Positions 716 through 60,875 of a DNA stretch of 64,000 bases are shown here, one piece after another. This stretch comes from Deltaproteobacteria bacterium (GTDB taxonomy: Bacteria > Desulfobacterota > Binatia > Binatales > Binataceae). The notes below the pieces were generated by a model. It did no database searches, was not told the DNA's origin, and saw nothing but the letters and a program-made list of their open reading frames with translations. Each line of letters begins with the position of its first letter. The first letter of the stretch is position 1. The stretch spans positions 39,448 to 103,447 of the forward strand of contig JAJYRQ010000001.1 in assembly GCA_021794015.1 (NCBI GenBank). The letters are read 5' to 3'. The position numbers were made by a program, and so were the translations under genes.

Positions 716-3667
716 ATGGCTGAGGGGCTGTCTCGACGGTCGTTCATCAAGCTGGCTGCCACCGCGTCGGTGGCGGCGTTGCCGGGGTGCGAGCCGGCCG
801 CGCGCAAGCTTATTCCGTACGTCGTACCGGACGATAACGTGATTCCGGGCGTGCCGGCCTTCTATGCAACGGTCTGTGCCGAGTGCAGTGCCGGATGCGG
901 CGTGGTGGCGCGCGTGCGCGAGGGACGAGTCGTCAAGCTGGAAGGCAACCCGGTCGATCCCATCAGCCAGGGAGCGCTTTGCGCACGCGGACAAGCCGCG
1001 CTGCAGGGACTTTACAACCCCGACCGACTGGGCGCCCCGATGCTGCGGCGCAAGGACGGAACGCTGGAAGCTGTCTCCTGGGACAAGGCGCTCGGTCTGC
1101 TCGACGAGCGGCTGCAGGCGGCGGCAAAAAAAGGCGCGAACCGCGTAGCTTATTTTGGCAGCCGGCAAGGCCCGACGCTCGACAAACTTGCCCGGCTCTG
1201 GCTTTCGGCCTGGGGTTCGAACCGGCTCATCGCCTACGAAGCGCTCAACGACGAGGCCGAACGGGCCGCAGCCAAAGCCTGTTTCGGGCGTACTGACCTG
1301 CCGGTCTACCGGATCGACCAGGCCGAAGCGTTGGTTTCATTTGGCGCCGATTTTCTCGAGACCTGGGGCTCGCCGGTGGAATACGCCCGCCAGTACGCGG
1401 CTTTCCGCGCACCGCGCCCGCTTCATGGCGGAACCGTCGTGGGCCGCTCCGCCTACGTTGGCCCACGCCTTAGCATGACCGCAGCCAAGTGCGACCAATG
1501 GGTTGCGGCCAGGCCGGGCACCGAGGGGCTGGTCGCGCTCGGCGTGCTCAATGTGCTGGTGAACCAAGGTTGGCTGCCTCATGACTCGGGAGTCGACCTC
1601 GAGGCGCTGCGCGGTTTGGTGGGCATGTATACGCCGGCTGCGATCGCCGGGCGCTGCGGCGTTGAGGCCAAGGCCATCGTCCGGCTGGGCGAGCTCTTCG
1701 GTCAGGCACACAGCGCGGTTGCGCTGGCCGGCACTGACGACCCAACCGCCCATATCGGCGCCTTGATCCTGAACACCGTTACCGGGAACCTCGGCCGCAC
1801 GGTGGTCTTTACCGACGCCGGCCCACCGCCCCCGCCGACCACCGGCCGGGCCGAGGTGGAAGCGCAAGTCGCCGCGATGAAGGCGGCCGAGGTGGATGTC
1901 GTCGTCGTGGCCGGCGCCAATCCGATCTACGCGATGCCGGCTTCGGCCGGGGTGGCCGAGGCGCTGGCCCGGGTGCCGTTGGTCGTCTGGATGGGCCAGG
2001 TCCCTGACGAGACGGCCGCTTATGCCGGCCTGCTGCTGCCGATCGACCATCCGCTGGAGAGCTGGCACGACGTGATGCCGCGGGCAGGTAACTACGGCCT
2101 GGGTCAGCCGGTGATGCAGCGGGTTTTTCCGACGATGGCGCTGGGCGATCTGCTCATCCGCTCGGCGCGGGCCGGAGGGCTCGGCCCCAAGGAACTTCCC
2201 TGGCAGGACGCTTCGCAGGCGGTTGCGGCGAGCTGGCAGGAGTTACGCGCTCGTTACCAGCCCTCGCAAAGCGCCGATGATTTCTGGACCTCGGTGCGCC
2301 GCCATGGCGGACTTTTCCTGCAGCCGGGTACGGCCGGCGTCAAGCTCGATCCGGCAGTGCTCAAGACCGCGCCCAATCTGCCCGAGCCGGCCGAGTTGGT
2401 ACTGGCCGCCTTCGCCCATCCCTTCTTCTTCGACGGGCGGGGAGCGGACAAGCCCTGGTTGCAGGAAATCCCGGAGCCGGTGACCCAGGTCGTATGGAAC
2501 AGTTGGGCCGAGATTCATCCCGAGACCGCGCGCCAGCTTGGGCTTACCGGCCGGGCCAGCCAGCTTTGGCTCTCGGCCGAGGTCGACGTTCTTGAGATCG
2601 CGTCGAGCCAGGGGCGCGTCGAGCTGCCGGTTTACATCGCCCAGACCGTGCGGCCGGGCGTGATCGCCGCACCGCTCGGACAGGGCCACAGCGCCTACGG
2701 GCGCTACGCCCGGGGGCGCGGCGCCAACCTGTTCCAGCTTTTGCCCGCCGGCGCGCTCAGCGTCGCGGTCAAGGCGCGGCCCACCGGAAAGAAGCAACGC
2801 CTGGTCTCGCCGCTCGGCAAAAGCGAAATGATGGGCCGCGCCCTCGTCGAGGCGATAAGTGTCGAGGAGCTCGCGCGCGGCGTGGCGCCGCGCCCCGAGG
2901 CGCCCGAGGCTCCCGAACCTCACGAGTTCTACGCCCCGTTCAAGTACCCCGTCCACCAGTGGGGCATGACGATCGACGTCAACGCCTGCACCGGATGCAG
3001 CGCCTGCGTGGCGGCCTGTTACGCCGAGAACAACGTGCCGGTGGTGGGAGAGGAAGGCGTCGAGCGCGGGCGAATCATGTCCTGGATCCGGATCGAGCGC
3101 TTTTTCCCGGCCCAGGAGAAGGCCGGCCACGCGCCTCTGCTCTACCTGATGCCGATGCTTTGCCAGCAGTGCGATCACGCGCCGTGCGAGCCGGTCTGCC
3201 CGGTTTTCGCCGCGGTCCATACCGAGGAAGGGCTCAACGGGCAGATTTACAACCGTTGCGTCGGGACCCGTTACTGCGAGAACAACTGCCCCTACAAGGT
3301 GCGCCGCTTCAACTGGTTTGCCCCCCAGTGGCCGGCGCCGCTGGATCTGCAGCTTAACCCCGACGTGACCGTGCGCGGCGCCGGCGTGATGGAGAAGTGC
3401 ACCTTCTGCTTCCAGCGCATCCGGCACGCCGAGATTACCGCCAAGCTGGAGAATCGGCCGGTGCGCGACGGCGAGATTGTCCCCGCCTGCGCTCAGAGCT
3501 GCCCCAGCAAAGCCATCAGCTTCGGAGACATGAATGAACCGCAAAGCGCCATGATGCGCCGGCGCGCCGACCACCGGCTGCGCAACTACGCGGCGCTTGC
3601 CGAACTGAACACGCGGCCGGCAATCACCTACCTGCGCGCGGTTTATCACGGGAAGGGGAAAGCCTAA
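716..3667 (+). CDS. actB: ACIII subunit ActB (fused B1/B2): molybdopterin-oxidoreductase-like domain plus 4Fe-4S ferredoxin domain, with a Tat signal
   Basis: 983 aa. N-terminal twin-arginine motif RRSFIKLAA. Multiple Cys clusters ([34 protein letters not shown]) typical of the NrfC/PsrB-like iron-sulfur domain. Size and operon position match ActB. Confidence 0.85.
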
Positions 3668-5026
3668 GTGGCAGCGGCAGCAAAGTCGGTTTTTGAACCA
3701 GACTACGGCGATGTCGACCGCGGCGTGCTCAGCGTCATGGCGCCGCCGGGCATCCGATACTGGCTCTGGGTCGGGTTTCTGGCGGCGCTGGTTCTGGTGG
3801 GCGGCGCCACCTGGACCAACCAGGTTTACCGCGGCCTCGGGGTGACCGGCCTGACGCAGCCCACGATGTGGGCGGTCTATATCACCAACTTCGTCTTCTG
3901 GGTCGGGATTGCGCACTCGGGCACGCTCATCTCGGCGATTCTCTACCTTTTCCGCACCCGCTGGCGTACCGCGGTCTACCGCTGCGCCGAGACGATGACG
4001 GTGTTCGCGGTGACGACTGCGGGCCTGTTCCCGATAGTCCATCTCGGGCGCCCCTGGTTTTTCTACTTTCTGGCTCCCTACCCGAACGAGCGGTCGCTGC
4101 AGCCCGATTTTCGCTCGCCGCTGGTGTGGGACTTCTTCGCGATCAGCACCTACCTCACCATCAGCTCGCTTTTCCTCTTTATGGGGCTGATTCCCGACCT
4201 GGCCAACGCGCGGGAGGCGAGCAGCGGCTGGCGGCGCAAGTTTTACGGGCTGTTGTCGCTCGGCTGGCATGGGACCGACGAGCAGTGGCGCAATTTCTCG
4301 ATGGCCTACCTGCTGATGGCGGGATTGGCGACGCCGCTGGTGCTGTCGGTCCACAGCGTGGTGTCGTTCGACTTCGCGATGGCGCAGTTGCCGGGCTGGC
4401 ACAGCACGATCTTTCCGCCCTACTTTGTGGCCGGGGCGATCTTTTCGGGATGCGCGATGGTGCTGACGCTCATCATTCCGCTGCGCAAGATCATGGGCGT
4501 GGAGAACCTGGTCACCGCGTGGCACCTGGACAACCTGGCTAAAATCATTCTGTTGACCTCGCTGATAATGAGCTACTCCTACGCCTGCGAGTCGTTCCTC
4601 GTCTGGTACGCCAAGGACCCGATCGAGCTGGAGACCTTCTACATGCGTTACTACGGCCCGCAGGGATGGATTTTCTGGCTCATGATTTTCTGCAACTGCG
4701 TCATACCGCTGCTGCTGTTCTCGCCGCGGGTGCGGCGCAGCATGGTGACCCTGTTCATCATCTCGCTGTTCGTCAACGTAGGGATGTGGAGCGAGCGGTT
4801 CGTCATTGTCGAGGGCTCCTTGGCGGCGAGCTTTGAGCCGTCGCAGTGGCGCTACTGGCATGCCTCGTTCACCGAGGTAACGATAACGGTGGCAAGCTTC
4901 GGCTGGTTCCTGATGTGGTTTTCGCTCTTTGCCCGCTTCATGCCGATTGTCTCGATGACCGAGCTCAAAGAAGGGCTGGGCTGGCTTAGGCAGGCGATTC
5001 GGGACAGCTACTCGAGGGCGGCATGA
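3668..5026 (+). CDS. actC: ACIII subunit ActC, NrfD/PsrC-like polytopic membrane quinol-binding subunit
   Basis: 452 aa, highly hydrophobic with many TM segments. Starts immediately after the actB stop. Overlaps actD by 4 bp. Confidence 0.8.
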   Translation: MAAAAKSVFEPDYGDVDRGVLSVMAPPGIRYWLWVGFLAALVLVGGATWTNQVYRGLGVTGLTQPTMWAVYITNFVFWVGIAHSGTLISAILYLFRTRWRTAVYRCAETMTVFAVTTAGLFPIVHLGRPWFFYFLAPYPNERSLQPDFRSPLVWDFFAISTYLTISSLFLFMGLIPDLANAREASSGWRRKFYGLLSLGWHGTDEQWRNFSMAYLLMAGLATPLVLSVHSVVSFDFAMAQLPGWHSTIFPPYFVAGAIFSGCAMVLTLIIPLRKIMGVENLVTAWHLDNLAKIILLTSLIMSYSYACESFLVWYAKDPIELETFYMRYYGPQGWIFWLMIFCNCVIPLLLFSPRVRRSMVTLFIISLFVNVGMWSERFVIVEGSLAASFEPSQWRYWHASFTEVTITVASFGWFLMWFSLFARFMPIVSMTELKEGLGWLRQAIRDSYSRAA

Positions 5027-5544
5027 ACGGCGAGTTGGAACTGCTTGCCTCTTTTGCAGAGGAGCGCCAGGCGGCCGGCGCCGTCGCGGCGCTGCGCCGG
5101 GCGCAGGCGGACGACATCCGGGTCTTCGCGCCGATCCCGAGCGAGCACGTCGAAGAGGCGTTCGAGCGCCGCAAAAGCCGGGTCCGGCTGTGGGTCCTGC
5201 TGGGCGGGATAGCCGGCGCGCTAAGCGGCCTTGCGATTACCATCGGCACCTCCCTGGAATGGAACCTGGTGGCGGGCGGCAAGCCGATTGTGTCGCTGCC
5301 GCCGTATATTATCATCACTTTCGAGATGATGGTGCTTTTGGGGGGGATTTCGGGCGTGCTGGGTTTTTTCTTTCATAGCCGGCTTCCCGCCCTGGAGTCG
5401 CAGCGCGGCTTCAACTCCCGCTTCGCGCAGGACCACTTCGGCGTGTTGGTTCGTTGCGCGGCCTCCGACGGCGACCGGCTGGAAGGGTTGTTGCGCGAGG
5501 CCGGAGCGCTGGCCGTCGAGCGGGTGGGCGCCGCGGCGGCCTAG
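5023..5544 (+). CDS. actD: ACIII subunit ActD (DUF3341-like small membrane subunit)
   Basis: 173 aa with a soluble N-terminus followed by two TM helices (LWVLLGGIAGALSGLAI..., IIITFEMMVLLGGISGVLGFFF). Operon position matches ActD. Confidence 0.7.
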   Translation: MNGELELLASFAEERQAAGAVAALRRAQADDIRVFAPIPSEHVEEAFERRKSRVRLWVLLGGIAGALSGLAITIGTSLEWNLVAGGKPIVSLPPYIIITFEMMVLLGGISGVLGFFFHSRLPALESQRGFNSRFAQDHFGVLVRCAASDGDRLEGLLREAGALAVERVGAAAA

Positions 5545-5581
5545 AGGACACACTCCTTGCGAGCGAGCAGGCGGAGCTAAG

Positions 5582-6853
5582 ATGACGTCCCATCCTGAAA
5601 CTTTTCGACAACCCGGGCCCGCCGCCGGGGCGGCTCCCTTCGCGGCGCAGCAGTCTGCGCTTGAGGGCTTGCGGATGCCGGCCGGTGCGCTGGTGGTGGT
5701 GGGAGTGCTGGGTTTTGCCGCGGCCCTGGCGCTGGGCGACCGGGCACGCGCCTGGCAGGCGTTTTTGGTGAACCTCCTTTACTTCATGGGGATTGCCCAG
5801 GCCGCGGTGGCGGGTTCGGCCGCCTTTTACCTGACCCAGGGGCGATGGGCTGGGACGGCGCACTTTCGGCTGGCCGAGGCGTTTGCCAATTTTATTCCGG
5901 TGGGTTTTGTACTGTTCTGGGGCCTTTACTTTGGCCGGCGGGAGCTTTTCCCCTGGGTTCTCCATCCGGTGCCCGACAAGGCGGCGTGGCTCAATGTGCC
6001 GTTTTTGTTTACCCGCGACGGTCTGGCTCTGGCGGTGTTGACGGTTCTAAGCTTTTACTTCCTGCGGCTGTCGCGAGCGCAGGAGGCCGCGCGCTGGAGT
6101 GCTTCGCCCCAGGACATCGTGCTGCCGCCGGCGGGGATTCGCCGGCTGGCGCCGGCGGTGGCCATCTGTTACGTTGTGGTCTACACGCTGCTTGCCTTCG
6201 ACCTTGTGATGTCGCTGGCGCCGCTTTGGCGCAGCACGCTTTTCGGCTGGTATTTTGTTGCGGGCTCTTTCTGGAGCGCTTTGGTTGCGATGTCGTTTAC
6301 CGCGGTGCTGCTCGGCCGTTATCTTGGTCCCGGGTCGGTGTTTGAGCAGCGCCGGGTCTTCCATGACCTCGGCAAGTTGATCTTTGCCTTTTCGATCTTC
6401 TGGGTTTATCTGGTCTTCGCACAGTACATCGTCATTTGGTACGGCGACATCCCGGTGGAGACCTTTTTCATCATCCGCCGCGCCAATCTGATGCCGTGGG
6501 CGGCGCTGGCGTGGACGGTGCTGCTGCTGGTCTGGGGGCTGCCGTTTTTTGTGCTGCTGGGGCGCAAGCCCAAGGAGACGCCGGCCATTTTGGGCACGAT
6601 CTGCCTACTCGGGCTCGTCGGTATCTGGCTGGAGCGTTACGTGCTGGTGGTGCCTTCGTTGTCGCCGGAGACGGTCCCGTTCGGCTGGGTCGAGCTGGCG
6701 GTGAGCGCCGGCTTTCTCGGCCTTTTCACTTTGTGCGCTCTGCCGGGGCTTAGACGGGTATGCGAGGCGGCCTGGCCCGCCGGGATCGAGGCTGGCGAGC
6801 GGGTGGAGGCGGCGGCGCCCGAGGCACACCTGGGCGCTGGAGCAGGCCGATGA
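5582..6853 (+). CDS. actF: ACIII subunit ActF (second NrfD-like membrane subunit)
   Basis: 423 aa polytopic membrane protein, paralogous in character to ActC. Contains no CxxCH, so it is not ActE. Its stop overlaps the coxB start (ATGA). Confidence 0.7.
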   Translation: MTSHPETFRQPGPAAGAAPFAAQQSALEGLRMPAGALVVVGVLGFAAALALGDRARAWQAFLVNLLYFMGIAQAAVAGSAAFYLTQGRWAGTAHFRLAEAFANFIPVGFVLFWGLYFGRRELFPWVLHPVPDKAAWLNVPFLFTRDGLALAVLTVLSFYFLRLSRAQEAARWSASPQDIVLPPAGIRRLAPAVAICYVVVYTLLAFDLVMSLAPLWRSTLFGWYFVAGSFWSALVAMSFTAVLLGRYLGPGSVFEQRRVFHDLGKLIFAFSIFWVYLVFAQYIVIWYGDIPVETFFIIRRANLMPWAALAWTVLLLVWGLPFFVLLGRKPKETPAILGTICLLGLVGIWLERYVLVVPSLSPETVPFGWVELAVSAGFLGLFTLCALPGLRRVCEAAWPAGIEAGERVEAAAPEAHLGAGAGR

Positions 6854-7890
6854 ACCGGCGGTTTGGGGCTCGCTGGCTCTTGTGGTGCGCGCTGCTTCTG
6901 TTTTCGGGCGCGACCGAGGCCGCCGCGCGCAGCTATCCGATGGACACGATGGCGCCTCGCTCCGACCTGGCCGAGCTGATCCAGTCGGTCTACGTGCAGG
7001 TTACGCTGTGGGACTTGCTGGTGCTCGTGGTCGTTATTGTTGCGCTTTTCCTGGCGATCTTCTGGTTTTCGACCAGGTTTGGGGAGCCGGGCGAGGAGCC
7101 CGTCCAGTTCCACTCGCATATGGGTCTCGAGGTCGCCTGGACGGCCGGACCGATCCTGATCCTGGTGCTGATTACGGTGCCGACGGTGCGCGCGGTCTTC
7201 AACACCCAGCCCTATCACTGGCCTAAAGAGGCCCTCACCGTGCGGGTGATCGCTCACCAGTGGTGGTGGGAGTTCCGCTACCCCTCGCTGGGCGCGCAGA
7301 CGGCCAACGAAGTGCACATTCCGGCCGACCGGATGATCCACTTCGAGCTCGAATCGGCGGACGTCATCCACAGCTTCTGGATGCCGGCGCTCGGCGGCAA
7401 GCGGGATGTCGTGCCGGGGCAGATAAACCAGATTACCCTGGTCGCCAAGGTGCCCGGCGAGTATTACGGCCAGTGCGCCGAGTTTTGCGGCGCTTCGCAT
7501 GCCAACATGCGCTTTCGCGTCTTCGTCGACACCGCCGAGGGTTTCCAGCGCTGGGTTGCCGACCAGCTCAAGCCTCCGGTGATGCCGGCCTCCGGGCTGG
7601 CCTCCGAAGGCGCCCGGATTTACCAGAACGCCCCTTGCGCAATTTGCCACCGGGTCAAGGGAATATCGGGCTTCTCCAAGCAGTATGAGGGCGGTTTCCG
7701 CGGTCCGGACCTGACCCATTTTGCGGGGCGCTCAACCCTGGCCGCCGGCGTGCTGGACAACACGCCGGACAATCTTGCGACCTGGATCCAGGACCCGCAG
7801 ACGGTCAAGCCGGGCGCGCTGATGCCCCGCCTGGGACTCAAGGGTCACGAGCTGACCGCGCTGGTAGCCTACCTTGAGAGTCTTAAATAG
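6850..7890 (+). CDS. coxB: caa3-type cytochrome c oxidase subunit II with a C-terminal cytochrome c domain
   Basis: CuA motif H-x34-CAEFCGASH-x2-M. C-terminal CAICH heme-binding motif. N-terminal signal/TM segment. Start chosen at the ATG overlapping the actF stop. Confidence 0.85.
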   Translation: MNRRFGARWLLWCALLLFSGATEAAARSYPMDTMAPRSDLAELIQSVYVQVTLWDLLVLVVVIVALFLAIFWFSTRFGEPGEEPVQFHSHMGLEVAWTAGPILILVLITVPTVRAVFNTQPYHWPKEALTVRVIAHQWWWEFRYPSLGAQTANEVHIPADRMIHFELESADVIHSFWMPALGGKRDVVPGQINQITLVAKVPGEYYGQCAEFCGASHANMRFRVFVDTAEGFQRWVADQLKPPVMPASGLASEGARIYQNAPCAICHRVKGISGFSKQYEGGFRGPDLTHFAGRSTLAAGVLDNTPDNLATWIQDPQTVKPGALMPRLGLKGHELTALVAYLESLK

Positions 7891-7903
7891 AGGGGTTTAG
7901 CCG

Positions 7904-10366
7904 ATGGCTGCTCAGCCGAAAGAAATTGCCGGGCAAAGGCCCAGTTATCTTGCCGAAGGCGGTCTGGTCGGTTGGCTGACCACGATCGACCATAAGCGGG
8001 TAGCGGTGCTTTACGGCCTGAGCTCGCTTTTCTTTTTGTTCGTTGGCGGCTTCGAGGCGCTACTGGTGCGCACGCAGCTTGCCGTGCCCAACAATCACCT
8101 TCTGTCGGCCGACACTTACAACCAGATGTTCACGATGCACGGCACGACGATGATCTTCATGGTCATCATGCCGCTGGAGATTGGCTTTTTCGCCAACTTT
8201 TTGATTCCGCTGATGATCGGGGCGCGCGACGTCGCCTTTCCCCGGATAAACGCGCTGAGCTTCTGGGTCTTTATCTTCGGGGCGCTCTTCATGAACGCCG
8301 GCTGGCTGTGGCATGCGCTGCCCGACGCCGGCTGGTTTGGCTATGCCAATCTGACCGAGCGCTACTACTCGCCCGGGATGAACATCGATCTGTGGGATAT
8401 CGGGCTGCTGATCCTGGGCGTCTCGACGCTTTTGAGCGGGCTCAACTTTTTTGTGACCATCGTCAACATGCGCTGCCCGGGGATGACCTTCATGCGGATG
8501 CCGATGTTCATGTGGGCGATGCTGGTCACCACGGTTCTCATTCTGCTGGCCTTCCCGGCCCTGACGGTGGGGCTGATTTTTCTTTTCCTCGACCGTTTCA
8601 TCGGGACGCATTTTTACGTGGCGGCGCTCGGCGCCACGCCGATTTTGTGGCAGCATCTGTTCTGGATTTTCGGCCATCCCGAGGTTTACATCATGGCGCT
8701 GCCGGCCTTCGGGATAATTTCCGAAATTCTGCCGGTCTTCTCACGCAAGCCGTTGTTCGGCTACGCCGGGATGGCATACGCGCTGGTGCTGATCGCCTTT
8801 TTGTCTTACGGCGTGTGGGGCCACCACATGTTCAGCACCGGCATGGGCCCGGTGGCGGACGCGACGTTTTCGATCACCTCGATGCTGATCGCGGTGCCGA
8901 CCGGGATAAAAATCTTCAGTTGGATCGCCACGGTATGGGGCGGCAAGCTGCGCATGACCACGGCGATGTATTTCGCGCTTGCCTTCATCCTGGAGTTCAC
9001 GATCGGAGGCTTGAGCGGAGTGATGCATGCGAGCCCGCCGATCGACCTGCAGCAGACCGACTCGTACTTCATCGTTGCGCATTTCCATTACGTTCTTTTC
9101 GGCGGCATGATGTTCGCCATTCTGGGGGCGTTTTTCTACTGGTGGCCGAAGATCACGGGGCGGCTGCTGGACGAGAAGCTGGGGCGTTGGCAGTTCTGGC
9201 TGACGGTCATCGGCTTCAACGGGACCTTCTTCCCGATGCATTTTCTGGGAGTGCTCGGGATGCCGCGGCGGATTTACACCTACCCGGCGGGCATGGGCTG
9301 GACCTTCTGGAACAGTTTTGAGACGGCTTGCGCCTATCTCCTGGGAGTCGCCTTCTTGATCTTTCTGGTGAACCTGGTGCGCAGCTTGCGCTCGGAGCAG
9401 GCGGTTGGGGACGACCCGTGGGACGCGCGGACGCTGGAATGGTCGGTCGGCTCGCCGCCGCCGGCGCACAACTTTGACGATATTGTGACGGTGCGCGGCC
9501 GCGACGCCTTCTGGCTGATGAAGTACGGCTCGCACGACGCTCCCGGCCACGACAGCAGCGCCGGCGCGCGGGCGAGCGCGGCACACGCCGAGGCCGGTCA
9601 CGCGCACGTGCACCTGCCGGCGCCGTCCTGGTACCCGCTGCTCTTTGCCGCGGGGCTACTCGTGATGGGCGTGGGCGCGATGACCTGGCTTCGGGTGGTG
9701 TTCCTCGGCGCCGGACTGCTCTTGGTGTCCATCGTTGGAATGGGGTTCGAGTACGCCACCTACGGCCAGGAGACTGAAGAAAGTCGGGCGACCTTCTTTC
9801 GCGGCGTGGACAGCCGAAAGATGGGCATGTGGGCCTTTCTCGGCTCGGAATGTGTCTTTTTCGCCTGCCTCATCTCGACCTACATGGTCTACAAGGCGCG
9901 CAACCTGGGCGGCCCGGACGCGGCCGTTTTGGACATTCCCCTGACTTCGTTCAGCACGTTTGTTTTGCTGACCAGCAGCCTGTTGATGGTCCTGGCGCTG
10001 GCGGCCATCCAGCGTGGCGACCGCAAATGGTCGGCCATCTGGCTGTTCGGCACGGCCGGCTTCGGGCTTGTTTTCCTGGGCGGCCAAGTCTACGAGTTCT
10101 CCAAGCTCTACCTGGTCGAGCACCTGGCGATGCAGGACAATCTGTTCGGGCAGACTTTCTATACCCTGGTCGGCACGCATGGCACGCACGTGGCGATCGG
10201 TGTGGTCTGGCTTTTCGTGATGGCGTTTGCGGCGCTTAAGGGAAAGCTGCAACAATCGCGCAGCCTGGCCGTCGAGATTGCCGGACTCTACTGGCACTTC
10301 GTGGATATCGTCTGGATCGTGATATTCACGTTGGTCTACCTGATGAGGTCGATAAAAGAAGCATGA
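7904..10366 (+). CDS. coxA: Cytochrome c oxidase subunit I fused to subunit III (caa3-type)
   Basis: 820 aa. Subunit I signatures (WFFGHPEVY-like GHPEVYI, HFHYVLFGG) are followed by a subunit-III-like C-terminal approx. 250 aa (YWHFVDIVWIVIF). A fused I+III is known in Thermus-type caa3 oxidases. Confidence 0.85.
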   Translation: MAAQPKEIAGQRPSYLAEGGLVGWLTTIDHKRVAVLYGLSSLFFLFVGGFEALLVRTQLAVPNNHLLSADTYNQMFTMHGTTMIFMVIMPLEIGFFANFLIPLMIGARDVAFPRINALSFWVFIFGALFMNAGWLWHALPDAGWFGYANLTERYYSPGMNIDLWDIGLLILGVSTLLSGLNFFVTIVNMRCPGMTFMRMPMFMWAMLVTTVLILLAFPALTVGLIFLFLDRFIGTHFYVAALGATPILWQHLFWIFGHPEVYIMALPAFGIISEILPVFSRKPLFGYAGMAYALVLIAFLSYGVWGHHMFSTGMGPVADATFSITSMLIAVPTGIKIFSWIATVWGGKLRMTTAMYFALAFILEFTIGGLSGVMHASPPIDLQQTDSYFIVAHFHYVLFGGMMFAILGAFFYWWPKITGRLLDEKLGRWQFWLTVIGFNGTFFPMHFLGVLGMPRRIYTYPAGMGWTFWNSFETACAYLLGVAFLIFLVNLVRSLRSEQAVGDDPWDARTLEWSVGSPPPAHNFDDIVTVRGRDAFWLMKYGSHDAPGHDSSAGARASAAHAEAGHAHVHLPAPSWYPLLFAAGLLVMGVGAMTWLRVVFLGAGLLLVSIVGMGFEYATYGQETEESRATFFRGVDSRKMGMWAFLGSECVFFACLISTYMVYKARNLGGPDAAVLDIPLTSFSTFVLLTSSLLMVLALAAIQRGDRKWSAIWLFGTAGFGLVFLGGQVYEFSKLYLVEHLAMQDNLFGQTFYTLVGTHGTHVAIGVVWLFVMAFAALKGKLQQSRSLAVEIAGLYWHFVDIVWIVIFTLVYLMRSIKEA

Positions 10367-15944: not shown

Positions 15945-16750
15945 GAAGCTCAGCTCCGGATTCGCCCAAACATAGTAAGGTGTGCCAGCAAGCGATTTTC
16001 GTGCCGGATGGCCGCACTGATGTCGCGTGTCGTTCCGACTCGATACGATGGTGGCCGACTCTTATAAGCCGGAATTAGCGTTTTGACCCCTCCCCGTCAG
16101 CAGAATCATGCGGCAAATGTGCGCGCTAACGCAACTTTGTGGGGCGTCTGCCGCTGCACGCGCTTGGGTCTGCCGGCAAAGCGCTCGGTCCTATCGCTTT
16201 GCCGGCCTGAAACTGCGGTCTGGGCCACCTGGGGCGGTTTTCCACAGGCACCTCTGCGTCGGCAATCGGCGCGGCGCCTCTTTTGTTGTCATTCCCGCGC
16301 GCGTGTCGGGCGCGCGCGAGGAATCCCGAATCCGGGCTACGCCTGGGTCTGGCGTAGAGCCACAACGTTGCCGCAGCAGGCCGGCCAAGCTGTGTCCCTG
16401 CGCAGCTACGACGCTCACATCATGAATAGCCTCTGCCACACGCTCTGCAGCGGAGCAACCAACGACCTGGAACGCCGGGCTCGCCGGCAGAAACTCGGCG
16501 CCACAGGATCATTCACGGCGCGTTACAACGTCGAGCGCCTGTTCTCCGCCGAGCAGCGCCACGATGTCGGCGCAGCGATCGCCCGCGCGAGTGCGGACAA
16601 GCGGCTGAGCCGTACGGGCAAGCTCGCACTTATCGAATGGGCAAATCCTCAGTGGAACGACTTGGGCGGCGAATAGGACGAAGTTGCGGCAAGACCACAG
16701 CCGGGCAAAGCGCGAAGAGTGTTTGCAAAACCGGGAATCCTCGCACGGCA

Positions 16751-16843
16751 GGCCATTGCATGGCGGCAGGGACACGCGCCGCGCATCTTCGCATTGCGCT
16801 CCCGCTGGTCGGGCAAGCTGCCGTGCGGTCAGCACCGCGCGCG
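16751..16843 (+). repeat. Dispersed intergenic repeat, copy R1 (approx. 93 nt)
   Basis: 93/93 nt gap-free alignment with 60601-60693 at about 93% identity. Shares the internal hairpin GCCA-ttgca-TGGC, a duplicated CATTGC, and the TTGCGCTCCCGYTGGTCGGGC core with the tandem array at 23698-23895. Confidence 0.8.
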
Positions 16844-16930
16844 TGAATGACAAACAGGCCCGGGGCCGGGCAGAACCCGTGTAAGTATATTGTGCGGGAC
16901 TTAATAATGGAGCCGTTCCTCGGCAGACCG

Positions 16931-23697: not shown

Positions 23698-23895
23698 CTG
23701 GCCACTGCGTGGCGGCTGGATGGAGCGGCAAGCGACGCGGCGTTGCGCTCCCGTTGGTCGGGCGGGTTGGCCTGCGGGCGCCGACTGGCCACTGCGTGGC
23801 GGCTGGATGGAGCGGCAAGCGACGCGGCGTTGCGCTCCCGTTGGTCGGGCGAGTTGGCCTGCGGGCGCCGACTGGCCACTGCGTGGCGGGCGGCG
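23698..23895 (+). repeat. Tandem array (2.3 copies) of an 87-bp unit belonging to the same repeat family as R1/R2
   Basis: Units at 23698-23784 and 23785-23871 differ by 1 nt. A partial third unit runs 23872-23895. The unit contains GGCCAcugcgUGGC and GCGTTGCGCTCCCGTTGGTCGGGCG. Lies between the convergent genes ahcY and the TVP38/DedA gene. Confidence 0.85.
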
Positions 23896-27116: not shown

Positions 27117-27435
27117 TATTTGCTTGCCGCTCTGCGGACGGGGGATCCAGATGCGGGCAGCCCGGCGCTTGGTCGGGCCTTTCTAAGCTTGTCCGCACCG
27201 CCACCCGCCCGATGCGCTGCGATATTGCTCCTTTAGCTAGGCAAGCGCAAGAAGGGCCGGGGCTCCCGGCGCCCGGCGACGCCCAAGCAAGGCGGCCGGC
27301 GATTGTCGGAGCGTGGCCCCAGCGGGCCGACCGGCGATCGCGGTAGTTCTCCTCCAGTGACGAGTCTGCAGGCCCGGCCGCGTCGTCGGCTCAGCGCGGG
27401 CGTCGGTTGCCGAAGCGCCGTTCATCGCGTCCGTT

Positions 27436-41590: not shown

Positions 41591-41683
41591 GGAGAGGTGG
41601 CCGAGCCCGGTTTAAGGCGCACGCCTGGAGAGCGTGTAAACTCCAAAAGGGTTTCGGGGGTTCAAATCCCTCCCTCTCCGCCA
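41591..41683 (+). tRNA. tRNA-Ser (anticodon GGA)
   Basis: 93 nt. Acceptor stem GGAGAGG/CCTCTCC. Anticodon stem CACGC/GCGTG with loop CUGGAGA. Long variable arm. T-loop TTCAAAT. Encoded 3' CCA. Confidence 0.85.
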
Positions 41684-42579: not shown

Positions 42580-44601
42580 TCACGGCAGGCAGACCGACTG
42601 CCCCCGGGCGATGCAGGCCACGGTCGGCACCAGGACCGGCGCCGCCGCGCCGACGAATTCGGCCACAAGGTTGCCAAGGTTTGTCACCCAGACATTTCCT
42701 GAGGCGTCAATCGCAATCCCGGTCGGCTGCTTTAAGTCGTTGGTGCAGCTCTGCGTGACGCACTGGGTAAACCCGGTGGACGGCGAGAGCGCGGCGCCCG
42801 ACGGGCTAAGCTCCGTAATACTCTTGGGGCCGGGGAGGCTTGACCCGAAGTTCGCCACCCAGACGTTGCCCGATGAGTCAACCGCGATGCCGAACGGCGC
42901 GCTAAGGCCACCGCCGGAATAGGGAGAGCTGCCGACATTGTTGCCTGACGGGTCGATCTCGCTAACGTTGTTGCCGCTGAAGTTTGTCACCCAGGCGTTG
43001 CCCAGGGGGTCGATCGCGATCCCTTGGGGGTTGTTGAGCGTGCCCGCGGTGTAGCCGCAAGGGGTCGCGTTGCTGGCGCATCCCGAGCTCGGCGACAGAA
43101 AAGCGCCGCCGGGGCTGACCTCGGCGATCGTGCCGAGGCTCGAGTTCACGCCTGACGGGCTGTCATAGTTGGCAATCCACAGATTGCCCACCGCGTCGAG
43201 CGCGGGCGGGTTGGCATTGATAAATTCGTTGCTGCTCAACGTTAGTAGCGTGCTCCCGGACGAGTTGAGTTCGACGACGGAACTCGGGTTGCCAACGCCT
43301 ACGACCCAGACATTGCCCGAGGGCTCGATCGCGACTCCGCCCACGGAGACGGACACGGTGTAGCCGCTATTTCCTGAAAGCGGACTCCCGGAGGGGCTGA
43401 GCTTCATGACAGCGGTAGCGCCGCCGTCGCCGACCCAGGCATTGCCGAAGAGGTCGATAGCCAGCGCGGCCGGTCCGTTCAGCCCGCCGCTAAGGAAGCC
43501 AACGGAACCGGAGAGCGAGGCGCCCAGCGGGCTCAGCTTGGCGACACCGGCTCCGGTAATGGGGTTAGCGATCCAGGCGTTGCCGGAAGCGTCGATCGCG
43601 ATGCCTGATGGATGATCCAACCCGCCGCCGGTGTAGGTCAGCGCGACCGTCCATGCGTTGGGCGCGCTGCCCAGGGGCGGCGCGAAAGCGGGCGTTGCCG
43701 AAGTCAGGTTGAACAGCGCGACGACGTTGTTGGCGGGGTTGAGCGCGATCTCCAGCGCGGCGCTAAGGGTGTCCTGTGGCTGGGCCACGCCGCCAGGCAC
43801 GGTGCAGGGTGCGCTGTTGTTCGTGCCGGGAGTCGAGCCCGGAACTACGCAGCTAAACAGGTTCTGGCATGCGGTTGAGCTGCTCCCGTTTGAGTTCACA
43901 CAGTCCTGAAGAATATCGGCGATGGTATTGAGCTCGGCTGCCGGCGAAACCACCTCGGGCGCCAGCGAGGCGGGGGCCAACCCGGTGGCAACGTCCACCA
44001 GGTTGGCCACCAGGGCCATGGCGTTGGCCAGCCCGGTGGCGTTCGAGAACGGGGCGCCGATGTCCAGGATGCCGGTGGCGGCGGTCCGCATTACGACCGG
44101 CGGGCCGGCGGTCTGCGCTCGCGCGGTTACCGCGCCGCCCGAAGTATTGATAAAGCGCGCCAGCGCCCAGACCGAAGCGACGGTGGTCAGCTCGTTGATA
44201 TCCACGGAAAAGGTGTTGGGCAGGTTGGCGCAGTTGCCCAACGCGGCCAGCATCTGGAGCGCGCTGTTGGTTCCCGCGCCGGGGTTGCCCCCCTGCGCGG
44301 TGAGGTAGACCTGCACGCCCGAGTAGGGGCAGCTAAAGTTCAGGGCGAAATGGCCGGTGGAGTCGGTGGTGGTGACGGCAAGCGAGGTTGCGCCCTGGCC
44401 GTAGCCGCCTGTCCCGGCCTGCCAGAGGGTCACGGCGGAGCCCGAGACCGGGTTCTGCCCGCCATGAACCTGCCCGGCTATGGCGAGCGCGCTGCCGCCC
44501 GCCGCGCCTCCCGCGCCGCCGCATCCCGCCGCCAGCGTCAGCAACAGCGCAGCTCGCAGCGTGGCGGCTGCGGCTCGCAGCAGATGCTTGTGTTTATCCA
44601 T
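42580..44601 (-). CDS. NHL-repeat beta-propeller lipoprotein (paralogue 1)
   Basis: Lipoprotein signal (LTLAAGC). Carboxypeptidase-regulatory-like N-domain. Multiple NHL-type repeats (GIAIDASGNVWVAN...). RBS AGGGGGAAG upstream of the MDKHKH start. Confidence 0.7.
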   Translation of the reverse strand: MDKHKHLLRAAAATLRAALLLTLAAGCGGAGGAAGGSALAIAGQVHGGQNPVSGSAVTLWQAGTGGYGQGATSLAVTTTDSTGHFALNFSCPYSGVQVYLTAQGGNPGAGTNSALQMLAALGNCANLPNTFSVDINELTTVASVWALARFINTSGGAVTARAQTAGPPVVMRTAATGILDIGAPFSNATGLANAMALVANLVDVATGLAPASLAPEVVSPAAELNTIADILQDCVNSNGSSSTACQNLFSCVVPGSTPGTNNSAPCTVPGGVAQPQDTLSAALEIALNPANNVVALFNLTSATPAFAPPLGSAPNAWTVALTYTGGGLDHPSGIAIDASGNAWIANPITGAGVAKLSPLGASLSGSVGFLSGGLNGPAALAIDLFGNAWVGDGGATAVMKLSPSGSPLSGNSGYTVSVSVGGVAIEPSGNVWVVGVGNPSSVVELNSSGSTLLTLSSNEFINANPPALDAVGNLWIANYDSPSGVNSSLGTIAEVSPGGAFLSPSSGCASNATPCGYTAGTLNNPQGIAIDPLGNAWVTNFSGNNVSEIDPSGNNVGSSPYSGGGLSAPFGIAVDSSGNVWVANFGSSLPGPKSITELSPSGAALSPSTGFTQCVTQSCTNDLKQPTGIAIDASGNVWVTNLGNLVAEFVGAAAPVLVPTVACIARGQSVCLP

Positions 44602-44717
44602 TTTGCTTCCCCCTGAAGGCCGAATGCCTTCTTTGGTTCGTTCGACGGACCAAGCGCCGTCGGAATTCTCCGCCTGCGATTGCAATGACAAACGGAACCG
44701 CTTTTCCCACAGGCTGG

Positions 44718-47237
44718 TCATGGCGTGCGTCCCGAGGAACCCCCTAACGGCGCCGGGCGGCCGCGAAGGGCGGGCTCGGGCCTTTGCGGAGGCCCGATAA
44801 GCGGAGTCGTCACCGGGACCGCAATGCCAACGAATTCGGTTACGCTGTCGGCGGCGAAATTAGCCGCCCACAGGTTGCCGGAGCGGTCGATGGCCGGGTT
44901 GAAGGGCTCGCTCAGGCCCCCGCCGGTAAAGCCGCTTGAAGGCGAAAGCGGCGTGCCGGGCGAGCTCGCGCCGCGGCCCTCAAGCGCGCTGATGCTTGCG
45001 CCATGGTAGTTGGTGACCCAGACGTTGCCCCCGCCGTCGACGGCCACACCGCCCGGAGAGGCGAGTCCGCCGCCGGTGAAACCGCGCGCCGGGGAAAGCG
45101 CGGCGCCGTCGGGTCCCAGCTCGGTTACGCTGTCTCCGTAAAAGTTGGTCACCCAGACGTTGCCCGCCTGGTCGACCGCGATCGCCTGGGGAAGGTCGAG
45201 TCCGCCGCCGGTATAGCCCGAAGAAGGAGAGAGCGCCGCGCCGCCGGGCGTAAGCTCGGAAACGTTGTCGTTGCTCTGGTCGGCAATCCAGAGGCTGCCC
45301 GCGCTGTCGAAGGCAAGGCCGACGGGAAAGTTGATGCCGGCGCCGGTAAAGCCGCCCGAGGGCGAGAGTGCTGTCCCTGTGGGAGCGAGCTTGGTGACGC
45401 TCGCGTTGCCGTAGTTGGCTGCCCAGACATTGCCCGCGGGATCGATCGAAAGCGCAACCGGAAAGTCGATGCCGCCGCCCCAATAGCCGCTTGCGCCCGA
45501 AAGCACAGCGCCGTCCGGGGCAAGCTTCGTTACGCTGCCGAGCCCGGAATTTACCCCGGGCGGGCTCTGTTCATTGCTTACCCAGACGTTGCCCGTTGCA
45601 TCCAGTGCGATCGCGAACGACTCCTCGAGGCCGCCGCCGGTAAAGCCGCCCGCGGGCGAAAGGGGCAACCCCGCTCCGCTCAGCTCGCTGACGGCGCTGT
45701 TGTAGTTGGCGACCCAGACGTTGCCCGCGCCGTCTATCGCCACGCTCGTCGGCTCGCTCAGGCCGGCGCCGACGAAATTAAGCGCCAGCGTCCAGTCAGT
45801 GGGCGGCGCGCCCAGCACGGGGGAGAAGACGGTCGCTTTGCCGGCGAGCGTGAAAAGATCGGCGACATCGACCCGGCCCGGGTTGAGCGCAATCGCGAGG
45901 GCGGCCTTCAATGTGTCCGAAGGCTCGGCAGCGCCCGGCGGCAAGCTGCACGTTCCGGTGCTTGCATTGTAAACGCCGGCCGCCGCGTCGCAGAAAAGCT
46001 CGTTGCAGGGCGCCGGACCGGTCGCCGACGGGCCTGCGCTGCTGACGCACTGCGCCAGCGCGTTGGCCAGCGTGTTCAGTTTCTCCACCGGCGCGGTTGC
46101 TCCCGCAGGCAGGTTGCCCCCCGGCGCCGTGCCGGCGCCGAGACTCACCAGGTTTTGCACCGCGCCAAAGGTGTTCTCGAGACCAATCAGGTTCGCTGAG
46201 GAAGTCCCGACGGCCTGCGGATTCACCGCATCCATGAACTGCGCCAGCGCGTAGACCGAGGCGACCGTGGTCGCCTCGTCGATAACCACCGTGGCAGGCG
46301 GGCCGACCCTGATGCTGCCGCCGCACGGGCCCAGCGCCGCCATCAGCTTGAGCGCGGAGTTATTTCCATTGCCGTCGTTGCCGCCGCTCGCAACCAGGTA
46401 GACGTACGACGGCGGGCCGGTCGAAGGGCAGTCGAAGAAGAGCGAAAAGCCGCCGTTTGAGGCGGTCGCGGTCGAGGCAAGCGCCGTTGCCCCGGAACCG
46501 TAGGCGCTTGTACCGGCCTGGTAGGCGGTGACGAACGAATTTGCGACGGGGCCAGCACCGCTGCCGACTCCCGCGCCTCCCTGAACGGTGCCAGATACAC
46601 TCTGCGCCGCCGCCGCCGGCGCCAAGCCAGGGCGCGGCCTCGGCGTCCCCCGGGGAGTTGGCGTCGCCGTTGAAGTTGGTCGGGGCGTGGGAGTAGGCGT
46701 GGCCAGGGCCCTGGGCGTCGCCCTCGGCGTTGGCGTGGGGGCCGGCGCAGTAGGTGTCGGCGGTGTGGGCGTAGGGCTTACGCCTTGTCTCGGTGTCCGC
46801 CCGCCGGGCGGGCGCGCGTCGGTCGCTAGCGCAAACCCAGGGGGCAGCGCCGAGGCGGCTCCGGTGGTGCCGCGGCTGCCGCTATCTTCGGCGCCAAGAC
46901 CGCCAAGCTTCAGCCGGGTCGGTTCCTCGACGCTGGACGCCGGCAGCGACTGAACCGCGAAACCTGGCCGCGGCGCTGCGTGCGTAGCCGCTTCAACCGG
47001 AGTGTCGCCTGTGGCCGGCGCGCCGGTAAGTCGCCTCGAAGGTGCACCCGGGTCTTGCTCGCTCCGCGCCGGCCCGCGGATGGCGCTCCTCTGAGACGAC
47101 GCGCTGAGACCGCCGGTGCCGCCGCTGCCGCCTCCCTTGCATCCGGCGACAAGCAGCCAGGCAGCAAGTACGCAGACCCAGGGCCGGCCCCGAGCCTTTG
47201 ACCGGCGCTCACCTTGGCTGCTGCGAACCCGCCTCAT
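44718..47237 (-). CDS. NHL-repeat beta-propeller lipoprotein (paralogue 2) with a Pro/Thr-rich linker
   Basis: Lipobox LLVAGC. Long PT-rich linker (TPTPPTPTAPAPTPTPRATPR...). Repeats homologous to paralogue 1 (VAIDGAGNVWVANY...). Confidence 0.7.
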   Translation of the reverse strand: MRRVRSSQGERRSKARGRPWVCVLAAWLLVAGCKGGGSGGTGGLSASSQRSAIRGPARSEQDPGAPSRRLTGAPATGDTPVEAATHAAPRPGFAVQSLPASSVEEPTRLKLGGLGAEDSGSRGTTGAASALPPGFALATDARPPGGRTPRQGVSPTPTPPTPTAPAPTPTPRATPRALATPTPTPRPTSTATPTPRGTPRPRPGLAPAAAAQSVSGTVQGGAGVGSGAGPVANSFVTAYQAGTSAYGSGATALASTATASNGGFSLFFDCPSTGPPSYVYLVASGGNDGNGNNSALKLMAALGPCGGSIRVGPPATVVIDEATTVASVYALAQFMDAVNPQAVGTSSANLIGLENTFGAVQNLVSLGAGTAPGGNLPAGATAPVEKLNTLANALAQCVSSAGPSATGPAPCNELFCDAAAGVYNASTGTCSLPPGAAEPSDTLKAALAIALNPGRVDVADLFTLAGKATVFSPVLGAPPTDWTLALNFVGAGLSEPTSVAIDGAGNVWVANYNSAVSELSGAGLPLSPAGGFTGGGLEESFAIALDATGNVWVSNEQSPPGVNSGLGSVTKLAPDGAVLSGASGYWGGGIDFPVALSIDPAGNVWAANYGNASVTKLAPTGTALSPSGGFTGAGINFPVGLAFDSAGSLWIADQSNDNVSELTPGGAALSPSSGYTGGGLDLPQAIAVDQAGNVWVTNFYGDSVTELGPDGAALSPARGFTGGGLASPGGVAVDGGGNVWVTNYHGASISALEGRGASSPGTPLSPSSGFTGGGLSEPFNPAIDRSGNLWAANFAADSVTEFVGIAVPVTTPLIGPPQRPEPALRGRPAPLGGSSGRTP

Positions 47238-60267: not shown

Positions 60268-60600
60268 GGAGTCTTGGCAGCGCGGGACGTCCTTCCCTTT
60301 CTCCGCCGGCAGAGGGGGCGACAAGGATGCGGCCGGGACCTGCTCTTTGCTCCCTTTTTAGGGAGGGCTTATCTTATTGAGGATTGCATATTATAGCGAC
60401 AGTTTCATTCCTGCCGGGCTACTTTGGCGTGTCGTTCTCACGCGCAAAGGGTCCCTCGGCGGCCCTGAGCACGCCGAGGACGGCGGCTGGCGCGCCGGGA
60501 AGCTCGAGCTTTCGCCCGCGCCGCGCCGGCGCAGTCCGCGATTCCTCGCGCGCAGCCAGTGCCTGGCGCGGCAAGGCCCCGGGGCCCCTCGCGCGCGCCG

Positions 60601-60693
60601 GGCCATTGCATGGCGGCAGGCAGACGCGTCGCGCATCCCCGCATTGCGCTCCCGCTGGTCGAGCAAGCTGCCGTGCGGTCAGCACCGCGCGCG
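60601..60693 (+). repeat. Dispersed intergenic repeat, copy R2
   Basis: 93-nt gap-free match to 16751-16843 (6 mismatches). The flanking upstream GATTCCTCGCGCGCAG motif and the downstream AT-rich block are also shared. Confidence 0.8.
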
Positions 60694-60715
60694 GGGGTGA
60701 CAGAGACGGGGGGCC

Positions 60716-60796
60716 CTCTTTTCCTCTCCCTCTCCGCCGGCGGGGGAGAGGATCGAGGCGCCGCCCTGAGCGGAGCGCAAGCGGAGTCGAAGGGAG
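60716..60796 (+). repeat. GC-rich hairpin repeat (family E2), copy b
   Basis: CCTCTCCCTCTCC-gccggcggg-GGAGAGG hairpin plus CCCTGAGCGGAGCGCAAGCGGAGTCGAAGGG, related to 42411-42480. A shorter relative is at 60290-60320. Confidence 0.55.
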
Positions 60797-60875
60797 ACGC
60801 ACCGCGCGTGGCAATGACGGAACGACGCGCGACCGAGCGGAAGCTGCGTAACTATATTGTGCAGTATTGAATAGT

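Follow-up and report, generated by a model that had tools for sequence, protein, structure and literature searches.

A repeat of ~87 bp nested in hairpin loops of a Binatia-like lineage, probably a mosaic DNA cassette

Neisserial intergenic mosaic elements (NIMEs), made of dRS3 and RS elements, are reportedly described in Parkhill 2000 alongside Bentley 2007. In these, dRS3 inverted repeats enclose RS units of 50-150 bp, the arrays differ from strain to strain and have been proposed to favour recombination, and as of 2007 NIMEs were stated to be absent outside Neisseria (Bentley 2007, PMC1797815). Hairpins are also linked to a group of nucleases: Chenal et al. (Nat Commun 2025, PMC11893778) describe SsnA as small GIY-YIG nucleases specific for single-stranded DNA (ssDNA), with multi-copy hairpin motifs (NTS = CGTCATTCCCGCGMAVGCGGGAATCYRG, generalised as SRM) accompanying the Ssn nucleases, cleavage of ssDNA occurring beside the hairpin, loop identity being dispensable and loop extensions tolerated by SsnA, and the gene placed in an NTS-ssnA-NTS arrangement. 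Since dRS3 overlaps NTS, NIMEs are part of the same Ssn-linked hairpin world. Here we analyse R, a repeat with a core of ~87 nt, in a stretch of 64,000 nucleotides (hereafter the window) from a Deltaproteobacteria bacterium (assembly GCA_021794015.1, contig JAJYRQ010000001.1). We consider it probable that R is a non-coding, DNA-level mosaic repeat cassette of ~87 bp, typically residing in the loop of an SRM-like hairpin repeat, PE, and forming mosaics that resemble NIMEs and bacterial interspersed mosaic elements (BIMEs). If so, Ssn/SRM-type hairpins with nested cassettes form strain-variable mosaics beyond Neisseria, in an uncultured Binatia-like lineage and in Mu-like prophages.

Copies of R and their enclosure by PE arms

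The window holds R at three loci, denoted A, B and C, while matching loci or contigs outside the window carry L-numbers. Copies A (16751-16843, + strand; core delimited at 16750-16835 by a profile hidden Markov model) and B (60601-60693, +) share 87 of 93 bases (93.5%) in a gap-free alignment, and the likeness extends to 16742-16852 versus 60592-60702 at 89%. Locus C is a tandem array (23698-23889, +; period 87 nt, 2.2 copies, 99% matches), identical to A at 58 of 87 positions without gaps. The exact blocks common to C, A and B are the 5' hairpin motif GGCCAYTGCRTGGCGG, with five occurrences in the window versus 0.31 expected, and the 21-mer core TTGCGCTCCCGYTGGTCGRGC, with four versus 0.06 expected. 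These data bear out an earlier note on the same DNA, which had described a dispersed 93-nt repeat at at least three loci, a diverged 87-bp tandem unit near 23698 and an intergenic location of the copies. The common orientation it listed is true of the window, all copies being on the + strand; among all loci compared, R occurs in both orientations inside PE.

Nine or so independent copies of R, distributed over the lineage of the window and three others, are available for comparison. In seven of nine, the 87-bp R is enclosed by two arms, ATTCC..CGCGCGCG and CGCGCGCG..GGAAT, which are the two halves of one hairpin. This hairpin, PE, is a GC-rich repeat of ~45 nt in its own right, composed of a left arm CCGGGAYYCCTCGCGCGCGCC, a loop and a right arm CGCGCGCGGGRRTGACA. 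At A the left arm lies at 16729-16750 (+, CCGGGAATCCTCGCACGGCA) and the right arm at 16836-16853 (+, CGCGCGCGTGAATGACAA), the latter being an inverted repeat of 16286-16303; at B the corresponding arms are found at 60579-60600 (+, CCGGGGCCCCTCGCGCGCGCCG), with a second, duplicated left arm at 60536-60552, and at 60686-60702 (+, CGCGCGCGGGGGTGACA). Empty PEs, in which the arms are joined by a loop of 5-7 nt, are present at 16286-16329 on the - strand (TGTCATTCCCGCGCGCG-tgtcgg-GCGCGCGCGAGGAATCCCGA) and at least four times in L029. Alignment of five empty and six filled PEs yields identical arms, with ~87 nt inserted between ...GCGCC-RGGC and CGCGCGCGGG... in the filled forms. With respect to its arms, R runs in the direct orientation in A, B, L011 and L029b and in the inverted one in L027, L029a and L029c. 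Furthermore, R of A, B and L011 is ~92-93% alike, yet the arms belong to two subtypes (ATTCC/GGAAT versus CCCC/GGGG), such that R and arm subtypes are swapped relative to each other. As ssDNA the empty PE of the window is predicted to form a 13-bp stem (TGTCATTCCCGCGCGCG-loop-CGCGCGCGAGGAATCC; z = -4.1), whereas PE::R is not clearly stabler than shuffles and the predicted fold differs between direct and inverted types.

A discrete ~87-nt difference between empty and filled PEs, with R facing either way and enclosed by arms of more than one subtype, is also what an independent miniature inverted-repeat transposable element (MITE) would leave, inserted into PE loops in either orientation by a transposase encoded elsewhere (e.g. 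IS110/IS1111-like or IS200/IS605-like). The ends of R, GCATGGCGGC and GCTGCCGTGC, are moreover imperfectly complementary (~93% paired allowing G-T), a 2-bp GC duplication is possible at the junctions, and R occurs outside PE at C and L005, as expected of a unit with its own mobility. However, this terminal inverted repeat is weak and needs G-T pairs to form, the junctions are ambiguous as to a target-site duplication, no orthologous empty-versus-filled site was found for R itself, and the Pfam-annotated gene calls of the whole window and ~20 kb of flanks include no transposase in this strain. We therefore regard an independent MITE as unlikely, and prefer the cassette reading.

A profile search of the window recovered no R copy beyond A, B and C. 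All three are sense and 3' of a + strand gene: A stands between an open reading frame (ORF) of 94 aa (+) and lysS (-), C between ahcY (+) and a VTT/DedA gene (-), and B between a GntR-aminotransferase regulator (+) and a Kir-type K+ channel gene (+). A fourth place, the hpf-ptsN spacer at 27160-27190, had been suggested to hold a fragment of R; we dismissed it, as it gave no match at up to 3 mismatches and no nhmmer match at E<=1, with its best gap-free match to the core no better than that of 72% of random windows, i.e. at chance level. The segment consists of a small GC hairpin followed by TTTCT (GCCCG..CGGGC CTTTCT) and is better explained as a local terminator-like hairpin than as part of a repeat.

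Strain variation and spread of R

Among strains at least 99.7% identical, locus C has 1.2, 2.2 or 3.2 units, and it is thus a variable number tandem repeat that can be used as a marker for strain typing. Locus B varies through modules linked to PE arms. In the window, a hairpin-rich module of 104 nt (60695-60798, +) is flanked by two PE right arms; it is absent from strain L048, which is 99.7-99.9% identical to the window, and L011 has a different module of ~190 nt at this place. The single arm of L048 is composed of the left part of one window arm and the right part of the other, as expected for a crossover between two arms rather than for a simple target-site duplication. A and B also share a downstream tail of 75 nt (16832-16906 versus 60799-60873, 72%), which is found in L011 as well. 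At A the 50-nt tail lies downstream of R (16854-16906, +, ending in GTAAGTATATTGTGC) and includes the terminator-like hairpin of lysS (- strand, 16871-16858), while at B the same tail comes after the extra 104-nt module, where a second PE right arm (60803-60819) and the tail together span 60799-60873 (+) and end in GTAACTATATTGTGCAGTATTGAAT, just before the Kir-type channel gene.

Public assemblies of this organism are disrupted at the same place. One contig of a metagenome-assembled genome (MAG) ends at window position 60549, just before B, and contig L060 (DAHZEK010000029.1, 13071-13260) leaves the window at 60377 and there connects B with other flanking sequence. Its 12 mismatches to the window all fall within 60385-60535, the sequence being identical from the PE arm at 60536; this pattern indicates a paralogous copy of the left B block elsewhere in the genome. 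The switch at the arm represents either recombination, and thereby a real rearrangement, or an assembly chimera. R would in this way account for the contig breaks and the chimeric contig in the public MAGs; the contigs concerned are DAHZEK010000016.1 and DAHZEK010000029.1, with a break at 60549 or a change of neighbourhood at 60377.

The left end of the B block is marked by a motif, ATTGAGGATTGCATATTATAGCGAC (60376-60400, +), that is common to L011 and at which DAHZEK010000029.1 departs from the window. The left motif shared by B and L011, ATTGAGGMTTRCAYATTATAGCGAC, is complementary to the right motif at 17 of 25 positions, as counted by eye, which hints at a composite unit of ~500 bp. The B block, as well as A on its right side, is bounded by AT-rich motifs, namely GTAASTATATTGTGC (16881-16905 and 60848-60872) and the left motif just given; these motifs stand in a window of otherwise 66% GC, are present in L011 too, and may be promoter-like or mark where a larger composite element ends.

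Two further kinds of variation were seen at these loci. Changes within R are clustered between strains that are ~99.7% identical, with TT versus CC in copy A (16787-16788), and with an A-to-G change in the 5' hairpin and a C-to-G change close to it in copy B of L048. Single-nucleotide polymorphisms are several-fold denser in R than in the flanks, possibly as a result of gene conversion among the copies. Separately, strains L046, L047 and L061 have an insertion of ~6 kb at 60357-60361, between the GntR gene and block B, with a breakpoint overlap of 5 nt. It encodes a DDE_Tnp_1_4 transposase, an OLD-family ATPase/TOPRIM nuclease, a UvrD helicase and an ORF6N protein, the OLD-family nuclease and the UvrD helicase constituting a Gabija-like pair. 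The intergenic region at B is consequently an insertion hot spot.

Outside the strains of this organism, a scan of a genome collection with the core pattern returned 25 loci, and the complete element is present at three of them. L012 is orthologous to locus B and 98% identical, L011 comes from another organism and a non-orthologous locus, and L005 is a diverged copy. A metagenome scan added L027, L029 and L030, with three R copies in L029 alone. The R loci in L011, L005 and L027/L029/L030 are not orthologous to those of the window, and R is spread across lineages, with copies in three besides its own. Taken together, the R family is real and lineage-restricted. The other 22 of the 25 loci were discarded as single chance matches in unrelated taxa. 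The weak nhmmer matches in L033, L038 and L017 exceed the 21-mer by little and hold nothing else of R. A plasmid search yielded no R match, and scans of viral contigs detected no R, only chance matches to the 5' hairpin motif and one PE-rich phage contig.

L029 encodes a Mu-like major head protein, tail sheath and tail tube, and is thus a Mu-like (pro)phage region. The viral contig L055 (574-9232; IMG/VR UViG 3300013761_000048) and L029 (4891-10959) are related Mu-like contigs, with 66% nucleotide identity in the sheath gene, and in both, PE hairpins occupy a number of intergenic gaps. Seven PE clusters, mainly head-to-head (inverted) doublets 3 nt apart, were seen in L055, which has no R. We judge it unusual for Ssn-type hairpins to be so dense within a phage structural module.

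As for the host, ENA contig ERZ27237345 k141_390187 matches the window at 100% identity, and MAG GCA_027403035.1 is also largely identical to it. The nearest relatives of its class I LysRS are ~63% identical, those with a named source being mostly Candidatus Binataceae, and a search for closer relatives by means of LysRS gave no intermediate genomes. The organism accordingly belongs to a deep, poorly sampled Binatia-like lineage.

The GIY-YIG gene and described hairpin systems

The 94-aa ORF upstream of A (16392-16676, +) is a decayed small GIY-YIG gene of SsnA/UPF0213-like type. It has no Pfam match of its own; however, 1675 homologs were collected at E up to 0.001, PF01541 (GIY-YIG) is matched by 8 of the 8 top homologs scanned (~92-121 aa, 39-52% identical to the ORF), and the family profile matches the UPF0213 structures 1zg2 and 1ywl. 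The encoded protein lacks the two motif tyrosines, the EHK His and the REKQ Glu, and judged from its sequence it is probably inactive or the gene a pseudogene. The ORF is bracketed by inverted PEs, with 16286-16303 pairing with 16836-16853 (94%) and 16313-16328 with 16732-16747 (88%). Analogously, intact homologs in two Binatia MAGs are bracketed by TGTCATTCTGAG...hairpin and hairpin...CTCAGAATGACA, in a layout TGTCAT-hairpin...gene...hairpin-ATGACA, with hairpin sequences that differ from PE and with the gene located between bioA and bioD. Homologs in public data (P0124-P0387) are mostly on contigs below 3 kb, and many have N- or C-terminal extensions, e.g. ...SSLRSE, VIPAKAGTQ, HSERSEESP and FVIPARVG, which look like translated hairpin repeats when read by eye.

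This arrangement closely resembles that of NTS and ssnA. As with the NTS of PMC11893778, PE is a multi-copy, hairpin-forming element with conserved non-palindromic flanks (GTCAT... on one side), its asymmetric ends GTCATTCC...GGAATCC being comparable to CGTCATTCCCGCG..CGGGAATCC of NTS; inverted PEs flank a single-domain GIY-YIG gene of ~94 aa, as NTS flank ssnA; and the loop tolerance reported there for SsnA fits the position of R in the PE loop, R being a natural example of what that paper describes in vitro. On the other hand, the PE stem is 6-8 bp longer, owing to an alternating CG tract, the nuclease gene beside PE is decayed, and cassettes of ~87 nt borne in loops were not found in the parts of PMC11893778 searched. 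The link to SsnA-type GIY-YIG nucleases and their hairpins, overlooked by the earlier note, is the most informative context for R.

A possible course of events can be sketched from these relationships. The self-complementary CGCGCGCG arms would fold while the DNA is single-stranded, during replication or DNA uptake, and the folded arms could then serve as points of recombination or template switching, whereby the cargo of the loop, R, would be copied, inverted, swapped between arm subtypes, tandemly amplified or lost. An Ssn-type nuclease or the ssDNA hairpins themselves may drive this copying and flipping. In a more specific version, an SsnA-like nuclease nicks beside the folded PE, repair or template switching copies or flips the loop, and the 21-mer acts as a second recognition element. 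We deem this version quite unlikely; if true, SRM hairpins would be a cut-and-copy platform for NIME-like mosaics, far from Neisseria and including Mu-like phages.

Several points weigh against the cassette reading or its link to Ssn. R is also found without PE arms, at locus C, where the 87-nt period equals the core length, and at L005; R is therefore separable from PE and can do without it. Each junction has a 2-bp 'GC' that would suit a target-site duplication as well as a microhomology deletion, and the junctions are equally compatible with insertion into an empty PE and with deletion from a filled one. Just ~9 independent copies of R can be drawn upon, and a purely neutral cassette does not account for the invariant 21-mer. 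No intact GIY-YIG copy was detected in the ~85 kb of this genome examined, and with the local gene decayed, a nuclease-driven mechanism is without a demonstrated enzyme here. Finally, the degenerate SRM pattern of PMC11893778, HGTCWYN(0-2)YYVSBRHN(0-5)WNVSBRGN(0-2)RNCYNB, matches no PE in the window, L029 or L055, nor the hairpins of L056/L057, although an NTS control sequence did match; PE fails because its stem exceeds the length that the pattern allows. Sharing the frame of the motif and failing its pattern, PE is here termed SRM-like rather than a formal member. Searches by tblastn for GIY-YIG remnants upstream of B or in L011/L029/L055 gave none, the only matches being PE sequences translated within mis-extended database proteins.

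Repetitive extragenic palindromes (REPs) and their mosaics offer a second frame, and the REP/BIME-like, mobile or mosaic behaviour that the earlier note had proposed for R finds support in the hairpin nesting, the two orientations, the occurrence in several lineages and the variation between strains. With the REP/BIME and REPIN-RAYT systems of Enterobacteria and Pseudomonas, PE and R share extragenic palindromes with an asymmetric flank, mosaics with other motifs, strain-variable tandem structures and a single flanked nuclease-type gene. Those systems differ in that the PE-associated gene is GIY-YIG and not a HUH/Y1 transposase, that PE is without a GTAG-type head, and that R is not two inverted REPs. 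The extragenic palindromes with asymmetric flank, the inverted PE doublets of L055 and the mosaic, BIME-like organisation would all be expected if PE and R formed a classical REP/REPIN mobilised by a RAYT (Y1, IS200-like) transposase. Such an origin is extremely improbable in our view: the gene bracketed by inverted PEs is GIY-YIG and no Y1 transposase, the gene calls of the window and its flanks contain neither a PF01797 protein nor a RAYT gene flanked by repeats, and the GTCAT...ATGAC hairpin layout flanks GIY-YIG genes in other Binatia too.

NIMEs offer a further comparison. Their units of 50-150 bp have short inverted repeats of ATTCC...GGAAT type at either end, to which the 87-bp R with its arms in seven of nine copies may be likened. 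In both cases the units lie in intergenic clusters with other repeats and are proposed recombination substrates, and the number and length of units vary between strains, as here with the units at C and the 104-nt module at B. The differences are that complete 20-bp dRS3 palindromes separate the RS units, whereas R lies between the halves of one longer hairpin, that R can be inverted within its hairpin, and that the phylum is Binatia-like and not Neisseria. Similarly, Correia repeat enclosed elements, ERIC/IRU elements and MITEs have terminal inverted repeats, cores that are present (long forms) or absent (short forms), and an intergenic, lineage-restricted distribution; they differ in that R has shown no TA-type target-site duplication, IHF site or promoter function, and in that PE arms also exist as an independent and abundant hairpin family.

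RNA, coding and binding-site readings

R was also considered as a structured RNA, either a small RNA or a stabiliser or processing element in 3' untranslated or intergenic regions. A number of features agree with this: the 21-nt block is invariant in all copies, the three window copies are all sense and downstream of a + strand gene, and two of the stems listed in the earlier note, GCCA-N5-TGGC (as GCCAT-TGC-ATGGC) and CCCG-N5-CGGG, are conserved as hairpins. Pairing in these two local hairpins reaches 97.5%, and C and L005 have a double-sided change of one pair, from T-A to C-G, for which strain L048 provides a T-G wobble intermediate; in L029c the CCCG/CGGG loop has gained a self-complementary insertion of 33 nt. 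A long-range pairing, exclusive of the local hairpins, is 93% paired with G-U, has two double-sided changes and works on the + strand only. The third stem of that list, CGCA-tt-GCG, is confined to A and B, and with just 1-2 nt for its loop such a hairpin is sterically impossible.

Against these features, Rfam searches of all three loci, at gathering and at E-value thresholds, gave no relevant match, and no promoter-like or terminator-like site was seen within R. Single-copy RNA folds are no better than shuffles on either strand (z -0.4 to +1.65), and neither are DNA folds of R/PE::R (z -2.2 to +0.2), with predicted folds that differ from copy to copy. Covariation is weak over the nine copies, which vary too little for a decision, the RNAalifold term being +0.32, about 0; the local-hairpin and long-range models both exceed 93% and, with nine sequences, neither is convincingly above controls. 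Relative to the neighbouring genes, L029a and L029c run antisense and L029b, the third copy in L029, sense, and tandem copy number differs between strains. The hairpin conservation, the L048 wobble and the loop growth in L029c, moreover, fit ssDNA hairpins as well as RNA. We hold a structured RNA to be distinctly improbable. A coding role, suggested by ORFs that cross R, was rejected because the conservation is at the nucleotide level and gene callers omit such ORFs; a six-frame peptide query from R returned nothing from 5.8 billion proteins. R itself has no evident gene-like function. Being lineage-specific, non-coding and situated in a REP-like hairpin loop, it is a familiar kind of spacer DNA rather than a new RNA gene, and should not be annotated as one.

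The 21-mer TTGCGCTCCCGYTGGTCGRGC is invariant in all copies, with the adjoining 25-30 nt varying freely, which suggests some constraint, e.g. a recognition site or a structure for propagation. A putative protein-binding role may explain it. Taken further, R as a whole could be a binding site for a host or phage protein, kept for regulation or nucleoid organisation and only secondarily repeated, and the copies between genes of the Mu-like prophage would agree. We nonetheless find this very hard to credit: the core is not a dyad, the flanking genes are without a common function, tandem amplification and loss or gain at the strain level argue against tight regulatory roles, and no candidate binding protein emerged. 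A mosaic cassette, with a possible constraint on its 21-mer, remains the reading we favour.

Elsewhere in the window, two adjacent large genes (42580-47237) have faint or weak Pfam matches to NHL, SGL and Vgb_lyase (beta-propeller), and their coding repeats of 132-171 nt dominate the list of direct repeats (families D1-D4) and are unrelated to R. The single RNA gene is tRNA-Ser (GGA), with a long variable arm, at 41591-41683. An alternative complex III cluster (molybdopterin/Fe-S subunit, NrfD, ActD), followed by genes for a caa3-type cytochrome oxidase, occupies 716-10366; these respiratory genes are ordinary content for this lineage.

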